From NCBI GenBank assembly GCA_021802545.1, contig JAJZRS010000002.1, forward strand, positions 124,546 to 188,545: a DNA stretch of 64,000 nucleotides. The letters run 5' to 3'. The DNA is from Pseudomonadota bacterium. GTDB lineage: Bacteria; Pseudomonadota; Gammaproteobacteria; Burkholderiales; JABEVD01. Shown in pieces: positions 4,520 through 48,448 of this stretch (positions are counted from its first letter, which is position 1; the number at the start of each line of letters is the position of its first letter). The position numbers and the translations under genes are program-made. The notes under the pieces are model-generated. The model was not told the origin of the DNA. It ran no database searches and worked only from the letters and a program-made list of their open reading frames with translations.

Positions 4520-6517
4520 ATGAATCGGCTCGCGCAAGAAACCAGCCCCTATCTCAGGCAACACGCGGAAAATCCGGTCGACTGGTTTCCCTGGGGCAAT
4601 GAAGCGCTTGATCTCGCCCGAAAACTGGACAGGCCGATCCTGCTGTCGATCGGCTATTCTTCCTGCCACTGGTGCCATGTCATGGCACGCGAATGCTTCG
4701 AGGATTTTGAAATTGCGGCGCTCATGAATGCGCACTTCGTCAATATCAAGGTGGACAGGGAAGAGCGCCCCGATCTCGACCATATTTATCAACTCGCCCA
4801 TGCCATGCTGACGGGAAGAAGCGGCGGCTGGCCGCTCACCCTCTTCCTTTCCTCCGAAAAAACGCCTTTCTTCGGCGGAACCTATTTTCCCAAGGAAGCG
4901 GCTTACGGTCTGCCCGGCTTCAAAGAAATTCTGCCCAGGATCGCTGACGCCTACAGACAGAATCGAGGAGAAATCGAGGCCTATTCGGCAAGGTTGGAGG
5001 AAGCGCTCGAAGAATCCGTCCAAAAGCTTGCGCCTTCCGACAAGGCATTGGACGGCGGCCCTGTCGATGCAGCCCTTGCCTCGCTGGAGAAAAGACTGGA
5101 CCCAGTTTCAGGAGGGTTTGGCCTCGCTCCCAAATTTCCCAATCCAACCCTGCTCGATCTTTGCCTTTCCCATCCCCGGTACGCGCAACTTGCACTCTTC
5201 ACGCTGGAGAAAATGGCCGAAGGCGGCATCCGGGATCAGCTGGGAGGCGGGTTCTTCCGCTACAGCGTCGATGATACATGGACAATCCCGCATTTCGAGA
5301 AAATGCTCTACGACAATGCCTGCCTCCTGAGGCTTTATGCAGATGCCTGGGTCATCACGAAAAAACCAGTTTTCAGGGATGCCGCCTATGGCATCGCGAA
5401 CTGGACGATGCGGGAAATGCAATCGGCCGACGGCGGCTATTATTCCTCGATGGATGCCGATTCCGAGCATGTCGAGGGGAAATTCTATTGCTGGACGCGC
5501 GAGGAAATCGCATCGATCCTGGACAAGGATGAATTTGCTGCCGCATCGCTCCTTTACGGTCTTGATGCGCAGCCCAACTTCGAGCACAGTTACCATTTTC
5601 ACCTTGCCAGCGATTTGGACGCCATATCGCACAAGCTGGGAAAAGACGCCCAACCGGTTCTCGACTCGGCCAAGGCCAAGCTCTTCGATGCCAGAGCGCG
5701 CAGGGTAAGCCCCGAGCGTGACGAAAAAATCCTGGCGAGCTGGAATGCACTCATGATCGGTGCAATGGCCCATGCGCACAGGGTTTTCGGTGAAGCGGCC
5801 TGGCTGTACTCGGCAAGGCAAGCACTCGTTTTCCTGAGAACCGCGCTCTGGAAGACGGACAGGCTGCTCGCGACCTGCAAGGATGGACAAGCGAAGCTCA
5901 ATGCCTATCTCGACGATTACGCCTACCTTCTGGACGCCATGCTCGAATTCCTGCAGGCCGAATTTTCCGTCGAAGCATTGGACTTTTCCATTTCCGTTGC
6001 CGAAGCGCTGCTTTCCCGCTTCGAGGACAATGCAGAAGGCGGATTCTATTTCACCAGCCACGACCATGAAGCGCTCCTGATCCGGCAAAAGCCTGCCGAA
6101 GATGCCGCCATACCCTCGGGCAACGGCGTTGCCGCCTTCGCGCTGCAGCGGCTCGGGCATCTCCTTGGGGAGCCGCGTTATCTCGAGTCGGCCAGAAAGA
6201 CCTTGCTGCTCTTCCGGGAAGCAGCAGCTTCCCACCCGACCGCACATGCAGCGATGCTGAAGGCGCTCGTGGAGGCCATTTCCCCGCCCTCCATCCTGAT
6301 TTTGCAGGGAAAAGAGAACAAAACATGGCAGGAAGCGGTCTCCGAGCGCTACCTTCCCCATGTGACGGCGCTTGCCATTGAAGAAGGCACTGCAGACCTG
6401 CCCCAGGCGCTCGACAAGGGCAGGGCCGAAAAGACTTCGGCTTGGCTGTGCACGGGGACGACATGCCTCCCCCCTATTTTCGTCCTTTCTGAACTCCTGA
6501 GTGCCCTTTCATCATGA
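4520..6517 (+). CDS. Thioredoxin-domain protein, YyaL/DUF255 (SPATA20-like) family
   Basis: N-terminus NRLAQETSPYLRQHAENPVDWFPWG...SIGYSSCHWCHVM is the hallmark of DUF255/YyaL. The long C-terminal region looks like an alpha-toroid. Confidence 0.85.
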   Translation: MNRLAQETSPYLRQHAENPVDWFPWGNEALDLARKLDRPILLSIGYSSCHWCHVMARECFEDFEIAALMNAHFVNIKVDREERPDLDHIYQLAHAMLTGRSGGWPLTLFLSSEKTPFFGGTYFPKEAAYGLPGFKEILPRIADAYRQNRGEIEAYSARLEEALEESVQKLAPSDKALDGGPVDAALASLEKRLDPVSGGFGLAPKFPNPTLLDLCLSHPRYAQLALFTLEKMAEGGIRDQLGGGFFRYSVDDTWTIPHFEKMLYDNACLLRLYADAWVITKKPVFRDAAYGIANWTMREMQSADGGYYSSMDADSEHVEGKFYCWTREEIASILDKDEFAAASLLYGLDAQPNFEHSYHFHLASDLDAISHKLGKDAQPVLDSAKAKLFDARARRVSPERDEKILASWNALMIGAMAHAHRVFGEAAWLYSARQALVFLRTALWKTDRLLATCKDGQAKLNAYLDDYAYLLDAMLEFLQAEFSVEALDFSISVAEALLSRFEDNAEGGFYFTSHDHEALLIRQKPAEDAAIPSGNGVAAFALQRLGHLLGEPRYLESARKTLLLFREAAASHPTAHAAMLKALVEAISPPSILILQGKENKTWQEAVSERYLPHVTALAIEEGTADLPQALDKGRAEKTSAWLCTGTTCLPPIFVLSELLSALSS

Positions 6518-43261: not shown

Positions 43262-44095
43262 TTGACTCCAGACCAGTATTGCCAGGAAAAGGCCGCGAAA
43301 AGCGGATCGAGCTTCTATTACAGCTTCCTTTTCCTGCCGCCTGAGCAGCGGCGCGCCATCATGGCGCTTTATGCCTTTTGCAGGGAGGTCGACGACATCG
43401 TCGACGAATGCAGCGATCCCTTCGTCGCAAAAGCCAAGCTCGATTGGTGGCGACAGGAAATCGAAAGCGTTTTTTCAGGCACGCCAGAGCACCCCGTGGG
43501 GCGCGCACTGCAGCGTATCGTGCCTGAACGCGATCTGCCCATCGAGCTGTTCAACGAGATCATGGACGGCATGGAAATGGATCTCACGGTGGCCCGCTAT
43601 CCCGATTTCAAGTCGCTCCAGCTCTATTGCTACCGCGTAGCCAGCGCAGTCGGCCTGCTCTCTGCCGAGATCTTCGGCTTCTCGGACAGGAGAACGCTGG
43701 ATTACGCGCACGATCTCGGCATCGCCCTGCAGCTCACCAACATCATTCGCGATATCGGGGAAGACGCCAGACGCAACCGGATCTATCTTCCCATGGACGA
43801 AATGGCCGAGTACGGCGTGGCCGCCTCCAGCATCCTCAATGCGCAAGCGTCGGAAAACTTCGAGAAGCTCATGGCTTTCCAGATCGACAGGGCGCGAAGC
43901 TATTATGCCAAAGCGTTGGACGCACTGCCTGAGCAGGACAGGAAGAGCCAGCGGCCGGGACTCGTCATGGCCGCCATTTATGCCGCGCTGCTCGACGAAA
44001 TCGCGAAGGACCCAGCCAGCGTCCTCAAGTGCAGAACCTCGCTCACGCCGGTCCGCAAGATCTGGATAGCCTGGAAGACATGGCAATGCGCGTAG
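43262..44095 (+). CDS. hpnD: Presqualene diphosphate synthase HpnD
   Basis: TTG start. The N-terminus MTPDQYCQEKAAKSGSSFYYSFLFLPPEQRRAI is characteristic of HpnD. It has the two Asp-rich motifs REVDDIVDE and RDIGEDARRNRIYLP. Confidence 0.85.
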   Translation: MTPDQYCQEKAAKSGSSFYYSFLFLPPEQRRAIMALYAFCREVDDIVDECSDPFVAKAKLDWWRQEIESVFSGTPEHPVGRALQRIVPERDLPIELFNEIMDGMEMDLTVARYPDFKSLQLYCYRVASAVGLLSAEIFGFSDRRTLDYAHDLGIALQLTNIIRDIGEDARRNRIYLPMDEMAEYGVAASSILNAQASENFEKLMAFQIDRARSYYAKALDALPEQDRKSQRPGLVMAAIYAALLDEIAKDPASVLKCRTSLTPVRKIWIAWKTWQCA

Positions 44096-45324
44096 CGGTA
44101 GTGGGCGCTGGCTATGCCGGCATGGCCGCCGCCATGACACTCGCAGAATCAGGCATTCCCGTCACCGTTTTCGAGTCTTCAAAGACTCTCGGCGGCCGCG
44201 CAAGGGGAATCAAATACAAGGGCGTGATTCTGGACAATGGTCAGCATATCCTGCTTGGCTGCTACGTTGAGACGCTTGCCCTGATAGAAAAAACATGCGA
44301 TGTTGAAAAACCATTCGTCAGGATGCCGCTCGCGCTCGACATCGACCATTTCAGCATGCGCGCGCTGCCTCTCCCGCCACCGCTCGACCTGCTCTTCGGC
44401 CTGCTTTTTTCGAAAGGGCTTGCCCTGTCTGCGAAGCTGGGCGCGATCAGGTTTCTCGCCCTGACGAAGATCCTCAAGCTGGAAAAAGACATGGCTGTCG
44501 CAGCGCTGCTCGAACTGTACGGCCAGAAAAAACAGGCAGTCGATTGCCTCTGGGAGCCGCTTTGCGTATCGGCGCTCAACACGCCGATCGCCAAGGCCTC
44601 GGCGAAAGTTTTCCTTGCCGTGCTCAAGGATGGGCTGAACGGCAGGGGAAGCGATATCGTCTTGCCCGATGTCGATCTCTCCTCCCTGTTTCCGAACGGC
44701 GCCGCCAAGATCATCCTGAAAAAGGGGGGGAGCATACTGACATCGACCGCTGTCAGCGCTGCCAGGAAAACGGACGAGGGATTCGAACTCATGACGGAAA
44801 ACGGCAGCCATATCTTTTCCCATCTCATCCTCGCTACAGCCCCTCAGCACGCAAAAAAACTGGCCAGGAATTTCCCCGATGTCGAAATTCCCGATTTCGC
44901 CTATCAGCCGATCGTGACTATCTACTCCCGGTACCCTGAACAGGTTCGCTTGCCCAAGAAAATGATCGGCGCATCGCAAGGCCTGGCGCACTGGTTTTTC
45001 GACAGAGGCGACGGCCTGATTGCGGCGGTGATCAGCGCCGAGGGCAAACATGTCGGGCTTTCGCAAGCAGAACTGGCCTCGAGAATCCAGGCAGAGACCA
45101 AAAAAATCGTTCCCGACCTTCCTCTGCCATTGTGGCAGAAAGTCGTGCATGAAAAGCGCGCCACATTCTCGTGCGATGTCGATGTCAGAAGACCGGAACG
45201 GATGACGTCCGTGCCCGATCTCTATCTCGCCGGAGACTATACGGCAGGAAGCTATCCTGCGACCCTGGAAGGCGCGGTCGCAAGCGGCCTCGCCTGCGCC
45301 AGGATGATCGCTGAAACCATTTGA
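44086..45324 (+). CDS. hpnE: Hydroxysqualene dehydroxylase HpnE (FAD-dependent)
   Basis: The start was moved to MRVAVVGAGYAGMAAA (GxGxxG). It overlaps the hpnD 3' end. Amine-oxidase-like fold. Confidence 0.8.
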   Translation: MRVAVVGAGYAGMAAAMTLAESGIPVTVFESSKTLGGRARGIKYKGVILDNGQHILLGCYVETLALIEKTCDVEKPFVRMPLALDIDHFSMRALPLPPPLDLLFGLLFSKGLALSAKLGAIRFLALTKILKLEKDMAVAALLELYGQKKQAVDCLWEPLCVSALNTPIAKASAKVFLAVLKDGLNGRGSDIVLPDVDLSSLFPNGAAKIILKKGGSILTSTAVSAARKTDEGFELMTENGSHIFSHLILATAPQHAKKLARNFPDVEIPDFAYQPIVTIYSRYPEQVRLPKKMIGASQGLAHWFFDRGDGLIAAVISAEGKHVGLSQAELASRIQAETKKIVPDLPLPLWQKVVHEKRATFSCDVDVRRPERMTSVPDLYLAGDYTAGSYPATLEGAVASGLACARMIAETI

Positions 45325-45879: not shown

Positions 45880-46533
45880 CTAGACCATGCGGCCAGACGC
45901 AATTCTCTGGAAAACCATGCACTTCAGCCATACCTTGTCTTCCTCGGAAAGATCAAGGAAAGCGATGCCGTATTTCATCATGCCCTCTTCCGCACTCCCC
46001 TCATGCCTGATGCGCGCATCCAGGCCGAAACCGCGTTTCATATCGTCGAGCTCGATCTGGAATGACACTCTGAGCTGATCGTTTTCCGCGCCGATGGACG
46101 ACGGCGCGTCGAGTTGCGCACCATCTTCGCTCAGATTGGTGATGAGAACGAGCTTCCTGGATCCGTCTCGGCAATGCGCGATTCCCGGAAGGCTCACGCG
46201 TACCCAGGGAGAGCGTCGCAAAGGCTGAATCCTTGTTCTTCTGGGATAGCTGAGGTGAAGGTAGTGAACAGGCGCAACGCATACTCGCTCTATCGTGGAT
46301 TCGAATGCGTAGATGTCCGTGCCTGAAAACATGCGCACCTCGACTGATTCACCTTCGAAAAAGTCAATTCTTCTGCCGCGCTCGACGGGTTCGGTGACCA
46401 GCAGGCTCACTCCCTTGATGCAGCCGATCAGCCTTGCATCAAAGCGCGCCTCCCGCTTGCAAATCTGGATCCTCTCCCAGACCTGCGGCAGGATGTTGCC
46501 CGACTGAAAGAGACCGAGATTCATGACTGGCAT
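45880..46533 (-). CDS. YcgR-like PilZ protein (flagellar brake family architecture)
   Basis: The N-terminal half is PilZN-like. The C-terminal PilZ has NLSEDG (N/DxSxxG), and an upstream LRRSPWVR in place of canonical RRxxxR. Confidence 0.75.
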   Translation of the reverse strand: MPVMNLGLFQSGNILPQVWERIQICKREARFDARLIGCIKGVSLLVTEPVERGRRIDFFEGESVEVRMFSGTDIYAFESTIERVCVAPVHYLHLSYPRRTRIQPLRRSPWVRVSLPGIAHCRDGSRKLVLITNLSEDGAQLDAPSSIGAENDQLRVSFQIELDDMKRGFGLDARIRHEGSAEEGMMKYGIAFLDLSEEDKVWLKCMVFQRIASGRMV

Positions 46534-46640
46534 CCTGAATTTTAATCCAATATAGCATCACCTCCGAAATCCGCATTCCCGCGACAATTTGCCGCATCGA
46601 CAACATCGATTGCAGCAGACAAATCGCATATAATCGCCGG

Positions 46641-47102
46641 ATGAAGCGCACCGCCTTCCTGATCATCGCCCTGTTCATGCTTGCGACTCATGCCATGGCG
46701 TCGAATGCGTGGTCCCTGCTTGAAGTGTCGGGCAAACCGCTCAATCTTGCTGCCTACAAGGGAAAATGGGTGCTCGTCAATTTCTGGGCGACATGGTGTC
46801 CGCCCTGCCTTGAAGAAATTCCCGATCTCGAAGCCCTCTACAAGGAAGGCAAGCTCGTCGTCATCGGTGTCGCCATGAACTACAAGAACGCCTCCGAAGT
46901 GCTCGATTTCGCCAGGAAAAAAGGCATCACCTACCCTGTCGTTCTGGGCAACGAGGATACGGCATCCCAATTCGGCGACCTTGACAGCCTGCCGACAAGC
47001 TTTCTTTATTCCCCGGACGGCAAGCTTGCCGGAGAACACGCGGGGATGCTCTCGAAGCAGAGCCTCATCTCCGCCCTGCAAGGATCACCTCTACCCGACT
47101 AG
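46641..47102 (+). CDS. TlpA/ResA-family periplasmic thiol:disulfide oxidoreductase
   Basis: Signal peptide and WATWCPPCLEEIP active site. The TAG stop (47100-47102) is formed with the first base of the adjacent repeat element. Confidence 0.88.
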   Translation: MKRTAFLIIALFMLATHAMASNAWSLLEVSGKPLNLAAYKGKWVLVNFWATWCPPCLEEIPDLEALYKEGKLVVIGVAMNYKNASEVLDFARKKGITYPVVLGNEDTASQFGDLDSLPTSFLYSPDGKLAGEHAGMLSKQSLISALQGSPLPD

Positions 47103-47392
47103 GGCGTGTTAACGCTATTTTCGCATTTGCGACGGTGGCAATTTGGGATGCTATCCAAGAAGCAAGTCGCGCGGTATTGCCAGTTACTACAAGCGACTTG
47201 CGACAAAGGAGAGCGCCCAAATCGCCACCGCCCCGTACCGCATGAAAAGAATTATTGAGGGTTACAGCGGGAAGGCCGCGTCTACGGTGTTGCAAGACTT
47301 GCGAATGGAATAACCATTCGCTGCGCCTTGCGCCTGGCATCCACGACCTTCCCGCTGTAACGCAGATGTGAAAATAACGTTAACACGCCCTA
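47100..47392. mobile_element. MITE-like TA-flanked inverted-repeat element / possible structured RNA
   Basis: The 32-nt terminal inverted repeats (47100-47131 versus the reverse complement of 47361-47392) match 29/32, and TA is present at both ends. Internal nested stems are 47133-47147/47216-47230, 47162-47170/47193-47201, 47261-47275/47347-47361 and 47301-47308/47314-47321. There is no credible ORF. Confidence 0.5.
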
Positions 47393-47710
47393 AATGTGCT
47401 CGAATTCCAGGGTGAGCATGAAGCCGCCGATGACCATCATCGAAAGCCCTGCGAGAAAGAACATGTCGGCAAGCTTTTCCATTTTGCCGGCGCGATGCGG
47501 CGTGCGCATCGACGTATAGGAAAGGAAACAGCTGATCAAAAAGACGAGGCCGGTTACCGCAAACAGATTGTCGGTGAGCGTGCTGATATGGCGCGTCGCT
47601 TCTGTCAACCTGACGATGCTGATGACCGTGACGCAAACACCTGTCATGGTTGCCGCTGTCGGCAGAATGTGATTGGCGATGCCTGAATTCGAATTTCTAT
47701 CCACATGCAT
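47390..47710 (-). CDS. Small membrane protein of unknown function (3 predicted TM helices)
   Basis: 106 aa. The TAG stop (47390-47392) is formed with the last base of the repeat element. Confidence 0.55.
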   Translation of the reverse strand: MHVDRNSNSGIANHILPTAATMTGVCVTVISIVRLTEATRHISTLTDNLFAVTGLVFLISCFLSYTSMRTPHRAGKMEKLADMFFLAGLSMMVIGGFMLTLEFEHI

Positions 47711-47736
47711 GAGACTGCAGGAATAGCGCGAGGTTC

Positions 47737-47772
47737 AAAAAATAAGGCCCGGTGAGGGATGTCGACCGGGCC
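47737..47772 (-). terminator. Rho-independent terminator downstream of the histidine kinase gene
   Basis: On the minus strand, the 8-bp stem ggcccggt/accgggcc is followed by TTATTTTTT. Confidence 0.7.
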
Positions 47773-47845
47773 CGAAGGAGGGTTCGTTACCATGAAAATT
47801 AGATAACGATTATATTCTAATTTTATTTTCTTCCTTCGTCAAGCA

Positions 47846-48448
47846 TCATGGCAGCCACATCTCAAAAAGAGCGCCGCCTTCTCCTGCATTTTCGAGCGTG
47901 ATGTGCCCTTTCAATCCCGACCTGACATGCGCCGCAGCAATGGCGCGGCACAATTCCGTGCCCAGCCCGGTGGAAAGCGCGCCTTTCTCTGCTCCCAGAC
48001 CCGGACCATCGTCCCAGACCGAGAACACCAGGAAATCGCCTTCCTTTCTCGCCTTGAGGACGATTCTTTCCTTGGCAAAGTGGAGCGCATTCTGGATCGC
48101 GGCTTCAAGCGCAAGCTGGATGAGCCTTTCATCGAAAAACCAGATGAGGGGCGTGCCGGGTGAGATTTCCACTTCGATCGAGGGAGGATCTTGCGGAAGA
48201 ACGGCAAGATCCCGCGCTTCGAGCAGAAAATCCTCAGGACACACGTCGCTCACGCGCGCGACCATGTGTCCCTTGTAGAGCGTCAGAAAACCGATGAGTT
48301 TCTGACGCAGCGACGCGCACAATGCGTATGGTGCGCCGATTTCAGGATAGGTGTGGCTCAATGTAGCCAGTTGCCCCTCGAGCACACCCAGCGCATTCTT
48401 CATGTCGTGGACAACGGCAGCAGTCAGTTTGTCGTCCATGTCATGCAC
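47846..48448 (-). CDS. Minimal cytoplasmic histidine kinase (DHp + HATPase_c only, no sensor domain)
   Basis: 200 aa with H-box AAVVHDMKNAL, N-box AIQNALHFA, G1 DDGPGL and G2 GLGTELC. It overlaps the upstream REC-TPR gene by 8 nt. Confidence 0.8.
   Translation of the reverse strand: MHDMDDKLTAAVVHDMKNALGVLEGQLATLSHTYPEIGAPYALCASLRQKLIGFLTLYKGHMVARVSDVCPEDFLLEARDLAVLPQDPPSIEVEISPGTPLIWFFDERLIQLALEAAIQNALHFAKERIVLKARKEGDFLVFSVWDDGPGLGAEKGALSTGLGTELCRAIAAAHVRSGLKGHITLENAGEGGALFEMWLP

Follow-up and report, generated by a model that had tools for sequence, protein, structure and literature searches.

A structured, probably non-autonomous transposable element with IS427-type ends between two convergent bacterial genes

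The stretch of DNA analyzed here, hereafter the window, comprises 64,000 nucleotides of contig JAJZRS010000002.1 (positions 124,546 to 188,545, forward strand) from a Pseudomonadota bacterium placed in the Burkholderiales (assembly GCA_021802545.1). At positions 47100-47392 it contains a 293-bp inverted-repeat element located exactly between the coding sequences of two convergent genes, and we conclude that this is very probably a non-autonomous transposable element (of the class of miniature inverted-repeat transposable elements, or MITEs) with the ends of an insertion sequence (IS) that belongs to the IS427 group of the IS5 family. The terminal sequence is that of complete IS copies of this group, and the orthologous junction of related bacteria is found in a pristine, a filled and a scarred state. 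An initial annotation, made from the sequence without database searches, had considered that the element could be mobile and non-autonomous, and this is borne out by homologs of it that occupy unrelated loci elsewhere, in other genomes.

Architecture of the element

The element and its surroundings were reexamined by reading positions 46800-47700 and with a repeat finder, which reproduced every coordinate given in the initial annotation, including those of the two internal arms, the stems they enclose and a 9-nt direct repeat. The features are as follows.

46641..47102, plus strand: TlpA-like AhpC/TSA redoxin, 153 aa (PF00578, 5.5e-19; PF08534), with its TAG stop codon at 47100-47102
47100..47101, no strand: left copy of the duplicated TA target, which together with the first G of the element forms the redoxin TAG stop
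47102..47131, plus strand: left terminal inverted repeat, of which the first ~19 nt, GGGCGTGTTAACGCTATTT, match the IS427-group end consensus GGGCGTGTTAACACTATTT
47133..47230, no strand: left internal hairpin arm; helices 2-4 conserved, 11 pairs changed on both sides
47231..47260, no strand: A/T-rich linker between the arms; variable, and missing from the subfamily B copies (see below) in the alignments
47261..47361, no strand: right internal hairpin arm; helices 5-8 conserved, 13 pairs changed on both sides
47361..47390, minus strand: right terminal inverted repeat, from the repeat finder and the end-pattern search
47391..47392, no strand: right copy of the duplicated TA target; the last C of the element plus TA reads CTA, the TAG of the minus-strand gene
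47390..47710, minus strand: conserved hydrophobic protein, 106 aa, without a Pfam match but with 46 homologs, syntenic; convergent to the redoxin gene

The two terminal arms, at 47100-47131 and at 47361-47392, each measure 32 nt and are complementary at 29 of 32 positions (91%); the mismatches amount, in the plus strand, to two G.U pairs and one A.C pair (pairs 24/276, 28/271 and 16/284). A 23-nt pattern derived from the ends has two sites in the 64 kb, both of them the ends of the element, against an expectation of 0.00. Within the left arm, the outer stem (47133-47147/47216-47230) is paired at 14 of 15 positions and the inner stem (47162-47170/47193-47201) at 9 of 9, whereas the right arm consists of an outer stem paired at 17 of 18 positions (47261-47278/47344-47361), which contains the fully paired 15-nt stem reported initially, and of an apical stem paired at 8 of 8 (47301-47308/47314-47321). 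The direct repeat, GACTTGCGA, occurs at 47195 and at 47296. The minimum free energy of the RNA is -154.7 kcal/mol for the plus strand (z = -11.8) and -168 kcal/mol for the minus strand (z = -14.0), with none of 200 shuffled sequences as stable in either case, and that of the single-stranded DNA is -89.9 kcal/mol (z = -11.7). The predicted fold is a multibranch junction composed of the terminal stem, two long arms and a weak small hairpin in the linker. A small internal open reading frame (ORF; ATG at 47253, 23 codons) was discarded as a coding sequence, its frame not being kept by eye in the homologous copy L007 and its region being deleted in subfamily B; more generally, comparison by eye showed that the frame of the internal ORFs is not conserved between copies.

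TA is present at both extremities, as initially described, and both flanking genes end on a TAG assembled from a flanking TA and the terminal G or C of the element. The stop codon of the 106-aa ORF is thus the reverse complement of 47390-47392, i.e., the last C of the element and the flanking TA. When the element and one TA are taken out, the junction reads GACTAAATG. The first base of the element is G and its last is C; insertion therefore restores both TAG stops, and neither protein is altered.

Identity of the terminal sequences

A scan of metagenome contigs with the end sequence AGGGCGTGTTAACRYTATTT returned at least 120 stretches (individual loci are designated here by L and a number), and the counts of IS copies given below are those among the matches listed. 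Read inwards, nearly all of these ends are preceded by T, mostly by cT, and continue either into ATGGAAATCACCGAAGAGCAG, the start of a transposase gene (MEITEEQ...), or into the reverse complement of the 3' end of that gene. Contig L023 carries a complete IS of 819 bp (positions 489-1307), which reads c-TA-GGGCGTGTTAACACTAT...ATAGTGTTAACACGCCC-TA-g, has perfect inverted repeats (IRs) of 17 bp and contains two overlapping ORFs, the second of them in the -1 frame, with a run of eight A at 855-862. OrfA resembles DUF4096 (2e-20) and OrfB DDE_Tnp_1 (2.6e-12), and both match the NCBIfam model NF033580, transpos_IS5_3. About 45 complete IS copies were recognized, 808-877 bp long and all flanked by TA. 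The reconstructed target sites of these copies are CTAG (24), CTAA (9), TTAA (4), TTAG (3) and TTAC (1), so that 40 of 41 have the context YTAR.

With the consensus of 94 IS ends, TA-GGGCGTGTTAACACTATTT, the element of the window agrees at 20 of 21 positions, TA included, and some of the IS copies carry the exact sequence GTTAACGCTATTT. The same ends in the same c-TA...TA-g context are present in elements of plasmid 3 of Variovorax sp. SRS16 and of Burkholderia thailandensis plasmids, annotated as 'IS5 family transposase'. The terminal ~20 bp, TA-GGGCGTGTTAAC[A/G]CTATTT, are common to IS427-group members such as IS1248, ISPaes1 and ISPpa6 and to the Variovorax and B. thailandensis elements, and these IS share with the window element the 2-bp TA duplication and the YTAR target context. 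They differ from it in that the window element lacks a transposase, measures 289 bp rather than ~0.82 kb, has an inverted repeat of ~30 nt rather than 17, and contains an unrelated interior, BLAST similarity being confined to the ends. Members of the IS427 group are 832-865 bp long, have IRs of 13-21 bp, generate a 2-bp direct repeat and contain two ORFs with a frameshift motif (PMC3281130). The complete IS copies follow this description in size, IR length, duplication and two-ORF frameshift layout, and are therefore assigned to that group. A literature search for the terminal sequence itself produced nothing relevant.

The initial annotation had recognized a TA-duplicating MITE, which is upheld by these data, and had attributed it to the IS630/Tc1 type, which is not. 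That an IS630/Tc1-mariner-type MITE is involved is now highly improbable. The TA flanks at both ends are in line with such an origin, and duplication of TA is also typical of IS630/Tc1 elements. However, every transposase found between these ends is of the DUF4096 plus DDE_Tnp_1 architecture and matches transpos_IS5_3, the size, IR length, 2-bp duplication and frameshift layout all fit the IS427 group, and no IS630-type gene lies beside these ends among the ~120 loci listed.

On this basis, a route for the arrival of the element can be proposed. The OrfAB transposase of an IS427-group IS of ~0.82 kb, encoded by overlapping DUF4096 and DDE_Tnp_1 ORFs that would be joined by -1 frameshifting at the A8 run, may bind the terminal ~20 bp of the element in trans and integrate it at a YTAR site. 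At the locus analyzed here the target was the CTAA or CTAG common to the overlapping stop codons of the redoxin gene and the membrane-protein gene, and its TA was duplicated. The interior of ~230 nt is unrelated to the IS; it is a structured two-arm passenger, and its stems have remained complementary while the family diversified.

Two further observations concern the IS itself. The 17-bp IR of each copy (e.g., L023:491-507 and 1289-1305) contains a 10-bp palindrome, GTGTTAACAC, which includes an HpaI site; because of this palindrome the two ends of the IS share a direct repeat in addition to their inversion, which provides a built-in microhomology for deletion of the interior. Moreover, eleven contigs (L017, L020, L030, L046, L057, L070, L081, L089, L090, L112 and L127; samples Ga0210005, Ga0210019, Ga0210044 and Ga0210050) all break off at exactly 106 nt within one and the same IS right end, while their outer flanks differ from contig to contig; this indicates a high-copy IS of this group at which the assemblies of those metagenomes are interrupted.

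Alleles of the junction in related bacteria

Loci orthologous to the junction were found via homologs of both flanking proteins. The gene order of this neighborhood is kept in all relatives and consists of squalene/phytoene synthase, FAD oxidase, PilZ protein, redoxin and small membrane protein, followed by a HATPase_c protein, a response regulator with TPR repeats and an RND-MFP gene; in the window this concerns positions 44029-45324 and upstream, and SQS_PSY and amino-oxidase genes are seen in L001 and L142. This conserved synteny around the redoxin gene makes a comparison of orthologous junctions possible. The alleles are listed below, with the percent identities of the flanking proteins.

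L147/L148 (redoxin 69%, membrane protein 85%): pristine, gct gaC TAG agatgctcgaattcc
L144-146 (redoxin 65%): empty, with TGA, then tct, then CTA
L001-L006 (redoxin 99-100%): filled, same junction as the window
L135 and L143 (redoxin 88%): filled, contigs stopping 25-27 nt into each end
L134, 1390-1411 (redoxin 90%): scar, gac-TAGGGCGTGTTAACACGCCCTA-aatgtg, a 22-bp perfect palindrome
L136-138, after positions 2962, 2962 and 1819, respectively (redoxin 84%): decayed scar, TAGGGC[A/G]TGTTGATACGCTCTAG

The empty site that had been suggested as a test at the orthologous junction was thus found, in L147/L148. Its sequence, gaCTAGag, contains a single TA, and both stop codons overlap within one CTAG, the commonest target of this IS group (24 sites among the matches listed). 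This is the architecture predicted in the initial annotation, in which insertion had been placed in a TA common to two overlapping convergent stop codons.

In the scar of L134, the outer 8 nt of both ends are joined via one common GTTAAC. Since GTTAAC is palindromic, it forms a direct repeat in the two inverted ends, and a deletion between its copies yields a scar of exactly 22 bp. The L134 palindrome is therefore best explained, judging from the alleles themselves, as what is left after deletion of an element that has these ends, although a full-length IS would leave the same scar; loss of the element would in that case proceed by deletion between the palindromic GTTAAC copies. Remnants of the 'nearly precise excision' of Tn10 were reportedly described by Ross, Swan and Kleckner in 1979 and by Foster et al. 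in 1981 (both works cited in 10.1101/2023.06.07.543989). The process resembles the one proposed here in that a deletion between short direct repeats inside the inverted ends leaves a small palindromic remnant, but the scar at this junction measures 22 bp rather than ~50 bp and was deduced from natural alleles, not from experiment. Relative to this clean scar, that of L136-138 is altered at ~4 of 22 positions.

These alleles would be read most economically as the outcome of a single insertion that postdates the divergence of the L147 lineage, with two or more independent losses thereafter. Alternatively, the element may have inserted here repeatedly, or co-occurring relatives may have exchanged alleles. 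The scarred allele L134 and the filled allele L001 come from one sample. The series of pristine target, filled site and palindromic deletion scar at one locus is a clean natural one.

Two side observations were made at this junction. L139 (1287-1306), a 78% ortholog, contains between the stop codons a TA-flanked spacer of 15 nt, aaC-TA-GGGGTCAGCTGGTCC-TA-Gat, which could be a very decayed scar, the scar of a different element or unrelated sequence. In addition, Logan contigs stop just inside the element ends, 25 nt (L135) and 27 nt (L143) into the element and 33 nt after the stop codon (L003). These stops occur despite an inverted repeat shorter than the k of 31, and loss of coverage at a strong hairpin or strain heterogeneity may account for them.

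Other copies of the structured element

A scan of GTDB representative genomes for the element end identified full homologous copies at unrelated loci in the metagenome-assembled genomes (MAGs) L007, L009 and L013. Complete copies fall into subfamily A, consisting of the window element (293 bp), L007 (296 bp), L009 (287 bp) and L018 (288 bp), in which the other three are ~84-85% identical to the window copy, and subfamily B, consisting of L013 and L029 (both 270 bp), which are ~70% identical to it over the BLAST-aligned interior. Partial copies of subfamily B are present in L103 and L113. In total, structured copies (270-296 bp when complete) occupy at least 8 distinct sites in betaproteobacterial MAGs and metagenomes, with unrelated flanks and each flanked by TA, and the terminal repeats are conserved in all six complete copies. 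Given these unrelated flanks, segmental duplication already seems to be eliminated as the source of the copies at different loci.

Application of a covariance model (R1) to the window and ~140 loci revealed no further full copies, just partial copies, scars and IS ends, and neither a BLAST search of the PLSDB plasmids with the element nor a scan of viral contigs for its ends gave a match. Some candidates were rejected: L010, L011 and L012 (Acidobacteriota, Chromatiaceae and Agriterribacter) match a 20-mer by chance, show 2-3 mismatches over the 22-mer and lack a partner end, and the model matches in L125, L126, L086 and L028 are unrelated hairpins.

The existence of these copies bears on the possibility of an immobile palindrome specific to this locus, such as a bidirectional terminator evolved in place. 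The element does occur as a single copy in the window and between convergent genes. Nevertheless, homologous copies with unrelated flanks in other genomes, a pristine orthologous site without the element and ends identical to those of an IS leave an origin of this kind with hardly any probability. The bidirectional terminator function proposed initially as a side effect found no support either: positions 46900-47600 contain no terminator-like site on either strand, and the stems are not followed by a U-tract or T-run. The same scan detected no promoter-like site at the element, and no match to an IHF site was seen in it in a comparison made by eye alone, without a tool.

Internal-deletion MITEs of the same IS also exist and have the same ends and TA flanks (L052:8340-8583, 244 bp; L050:10176-10249, 74 bp). 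These keep recognizable subterminal sequence of the IS, including the start of OrfA, whereas the interior of the window element is foreign and structured. The 244-bp MITE of L052 retains the reverse complement of the OrfA start, and that of L050 is a decayed mini-element. Solo or truncated elements with the same end and a different hairpin-rich interior were observed at L008:~5930-6151 (Sulfuricellaceae MAG_148; CAGGG in L008) and L096:1-161; their partner end is absent within reach, and they may represent further passenger types or rearranged copies.

Short, non-coding elements bounded by terminal inverted repeats that lie at gene ends and are co-transcribed as stable hairpins are well known from the Correia elements of Neisseria (CREE/NEMIS) and the enterobacterial ERIC/IRU sequences, and Correia elements also duplicate TA. 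The window element is about twice as long as a Correia element. From MITEs of the Correia and ERIC type in general it differs in having a branched two-arm interior instead of a single hairpin, an identifiable parent IS family, a copy number that is apparently one per genome and not in the tens to hundreds, and no detected promoter-like site.

Placement at stop codons

In 5 of the 6 structured copies, real genes end exactly on the TAG of the element. These are both flanking genes in the window, HemF in L007, an RluF/RsuA-like synthase in L009, GST in L013 and a MoxR-like ATPase in L029. Two cases that seemed to be 'both-sided' as well (L007 right and L009 left) were dismissed as arginine-rich antisense artefacts without a Pfam match. 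TA is three-fold depleted in the window, which contains ~66-70 YTAR sites, and 28 of 66 such sites (42%) already end an open frame of at least 100 codons on one strand or more, 7 of them on both. A special mechanism that seeks stop codons was ruled out on this ground. Because the element regenerates TAG on both sides, its insertion at a YTAR within a stop codon is harmless, and YTAR targeting combined with selection against disruptive insertions is sufficient to explain the placement. The window thus illustrates how a YTAR-targeting element enters overlapping convergent stop codons while leaving both proteins intact.

Structure and covariation of the interior

The internal stems were compared in a structure-aware alignment (A2) of six copies. 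In this alignment, which was fitted to the model and in which two copies are 96% identical to each other, standard pairs occupy 94.6% of 588 cells, and 26 of 98 pairs are changed on both sides, compared with 1-6 in controls in which the partners were slid by 1-3 columns; none of 500 shuffles reached the observed pairing values. Even within subfamily A, the 5' strand of helix 5 reads ACAGCGG, GCTGCTG, GGCTCTG or GCAGCTG, each with a matching partner. Invariant positions make up 49% of the stems and 31% of the loops, and the linker is missing in subfamily B. Refolding of the alignment gave -128 kcal/mol for the plus and -135 kcal/mol for the minus strand, with similar G.U usage. An attempt to identify the functional strand from the counts of G.U versus A.C pairs in the inner stems (30 versus 6, biased to the plus strand) was abandoned, the plus-strand excess of G.U being an artefact, since the plus strand had served for the structure prediction, as the equivalence of both strands upon refolding made clear.

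A cmscan of positions 46500-48000 against Rfam at E <= 10, the check proposed in the initial annotation, gave inside the element just a chance-level match to GHRLOS (E = 9.2). The structured RNA considered there has thus gained support from the covarying stems and lost it by the lack of an Rfam match and of a strand preference in folding. Outside the element, a weak match to CyaR_RyeE at 47741-47819 (minus strand; 25.6 bits versus a gathering score of 47, E = 0.056), in the intergenic region from the 106-aa ORF to the HATPase_c gene, is probably due to chance. Since both strands fold equally and Rfam offers no match, constraint at the RNA level and at the DNA level are inseparable, and the structure could reflect an RNA role, a requirement of transposition at the DNA level or mutational correction of quasipalindromes.

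Weighing the interpretations

Several observations weigh against the interpretation of the element as a MITE with IS427-group ends. In agreement with the initial annotation, neither the element nor the rest of the window contains a transposase: tblastn with the partner transposase found none in the 64 kb, nor within 8-13 kb around the other copies. One copy was seen per MAG or sample and one in the window, unlike in classic MITE families, which are high-copy. The ends of the window element and those of the 88% lineage differ at 1 of 58 nt, even though third codon positions of the flanking genes differ at 17-21% (binomial P ~2e-5 for the ends at the third-position rate) and a neutral relic should drift more; this slow divergence is possibly due to constraint in place, to recent arrival or exchange, or to repeated hits at the site. 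Finally, a plain MITE model leaves the conserved and covarying interior unexplained.

For the covariation of the interior alone, a property of the DNA without RNA function is a realistic explanation, if somewhat short of an even chance, and one compatible with the element being a MITE. Either a hairpin or cruciform would bring the ends together for transposition and would thereby be favored among lineages of the element, or correction of quasipalindromes by template switching, which is an established mutational mechanism, would keep the stems by mutation alone; the estimate just given covers both variants jointly. Such an explanation agrees with a fold that is symmetric on both strands, with the stability of the single-stranded DNA (-89.9 kcal/mol, z = -11.7), with conservation residing in stems and not in loops, and with the L134 scar, which shows that the palindrome takes part in rearrangements at the DNA level. 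Correction, however, keeps complementarity and would not hold the sequence itself constant across lineages that have diverged, as it is in 57 of 58 end positions, and we know of no experimental evidence for folded single-stranded substrates in the transposition of IS427-group elements.

A functional structured RNA, formed by the whole element or by its interior, is rather unlikely, be it a cis-acting 3'-untranslated-region module that stabilizes or insulates the convergent transcripts or a discrete small RNA, and the same low estimate includes the scenario in which it spread by transposition and was then kept by selection at the level of the host. Strong compensatory variation in all internal helices and the very stable RNA folds speak for this possibility, as do the slow change of the ends in place, seen against both the synonymous divergence and the decay (4 of 22 positions) of the scar in the 84% lineage, and the location of 5 of 6 copies directly after the stop codon of a real gene. 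On the other hand, there is no Rfam match at E <= 10 and no promoter- or terminator-like site, the strands show no signature of function (-128 versus -135 kcal/mol), loops are less conserved than stems, placement at stop codons is expected from YTAR targeting (28 of 66 sites end a long frame), and the element was lost at least 2 times at this locus.

Described from the side of its possible role, the two-arm interior of ~230 nt has a similarly small chance of being a functional structured module on an IS427-type vehicle that is under purifying selection where it lands. Such a module would be an RNA 3'-end or insulator element serving the two convergent genes, or else a discrete non-coding RNA, and it would account for stems that covary across subfamilies of ~70% identity, for end identity at 57 of 58 positions at ~20% synonymous divergence and for the single copy per genome.

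Implications

For annotation, the family assignment of the element moves from IS630 to IS5/IS427, and metagenomes can be searched for this IS group by means of its terminal signature, TA-GGGCGTGTTAAC, and of the 22-bp scar. Nothing here goes beyond the ordinary except the interior, which is well preserved and covaries, combined with ends that diverge slowly in place. If this reflects function, a structured RNA or DNA module would here be carried by a transposon; if not, the element adds one more family to the MITEs of bacteria.

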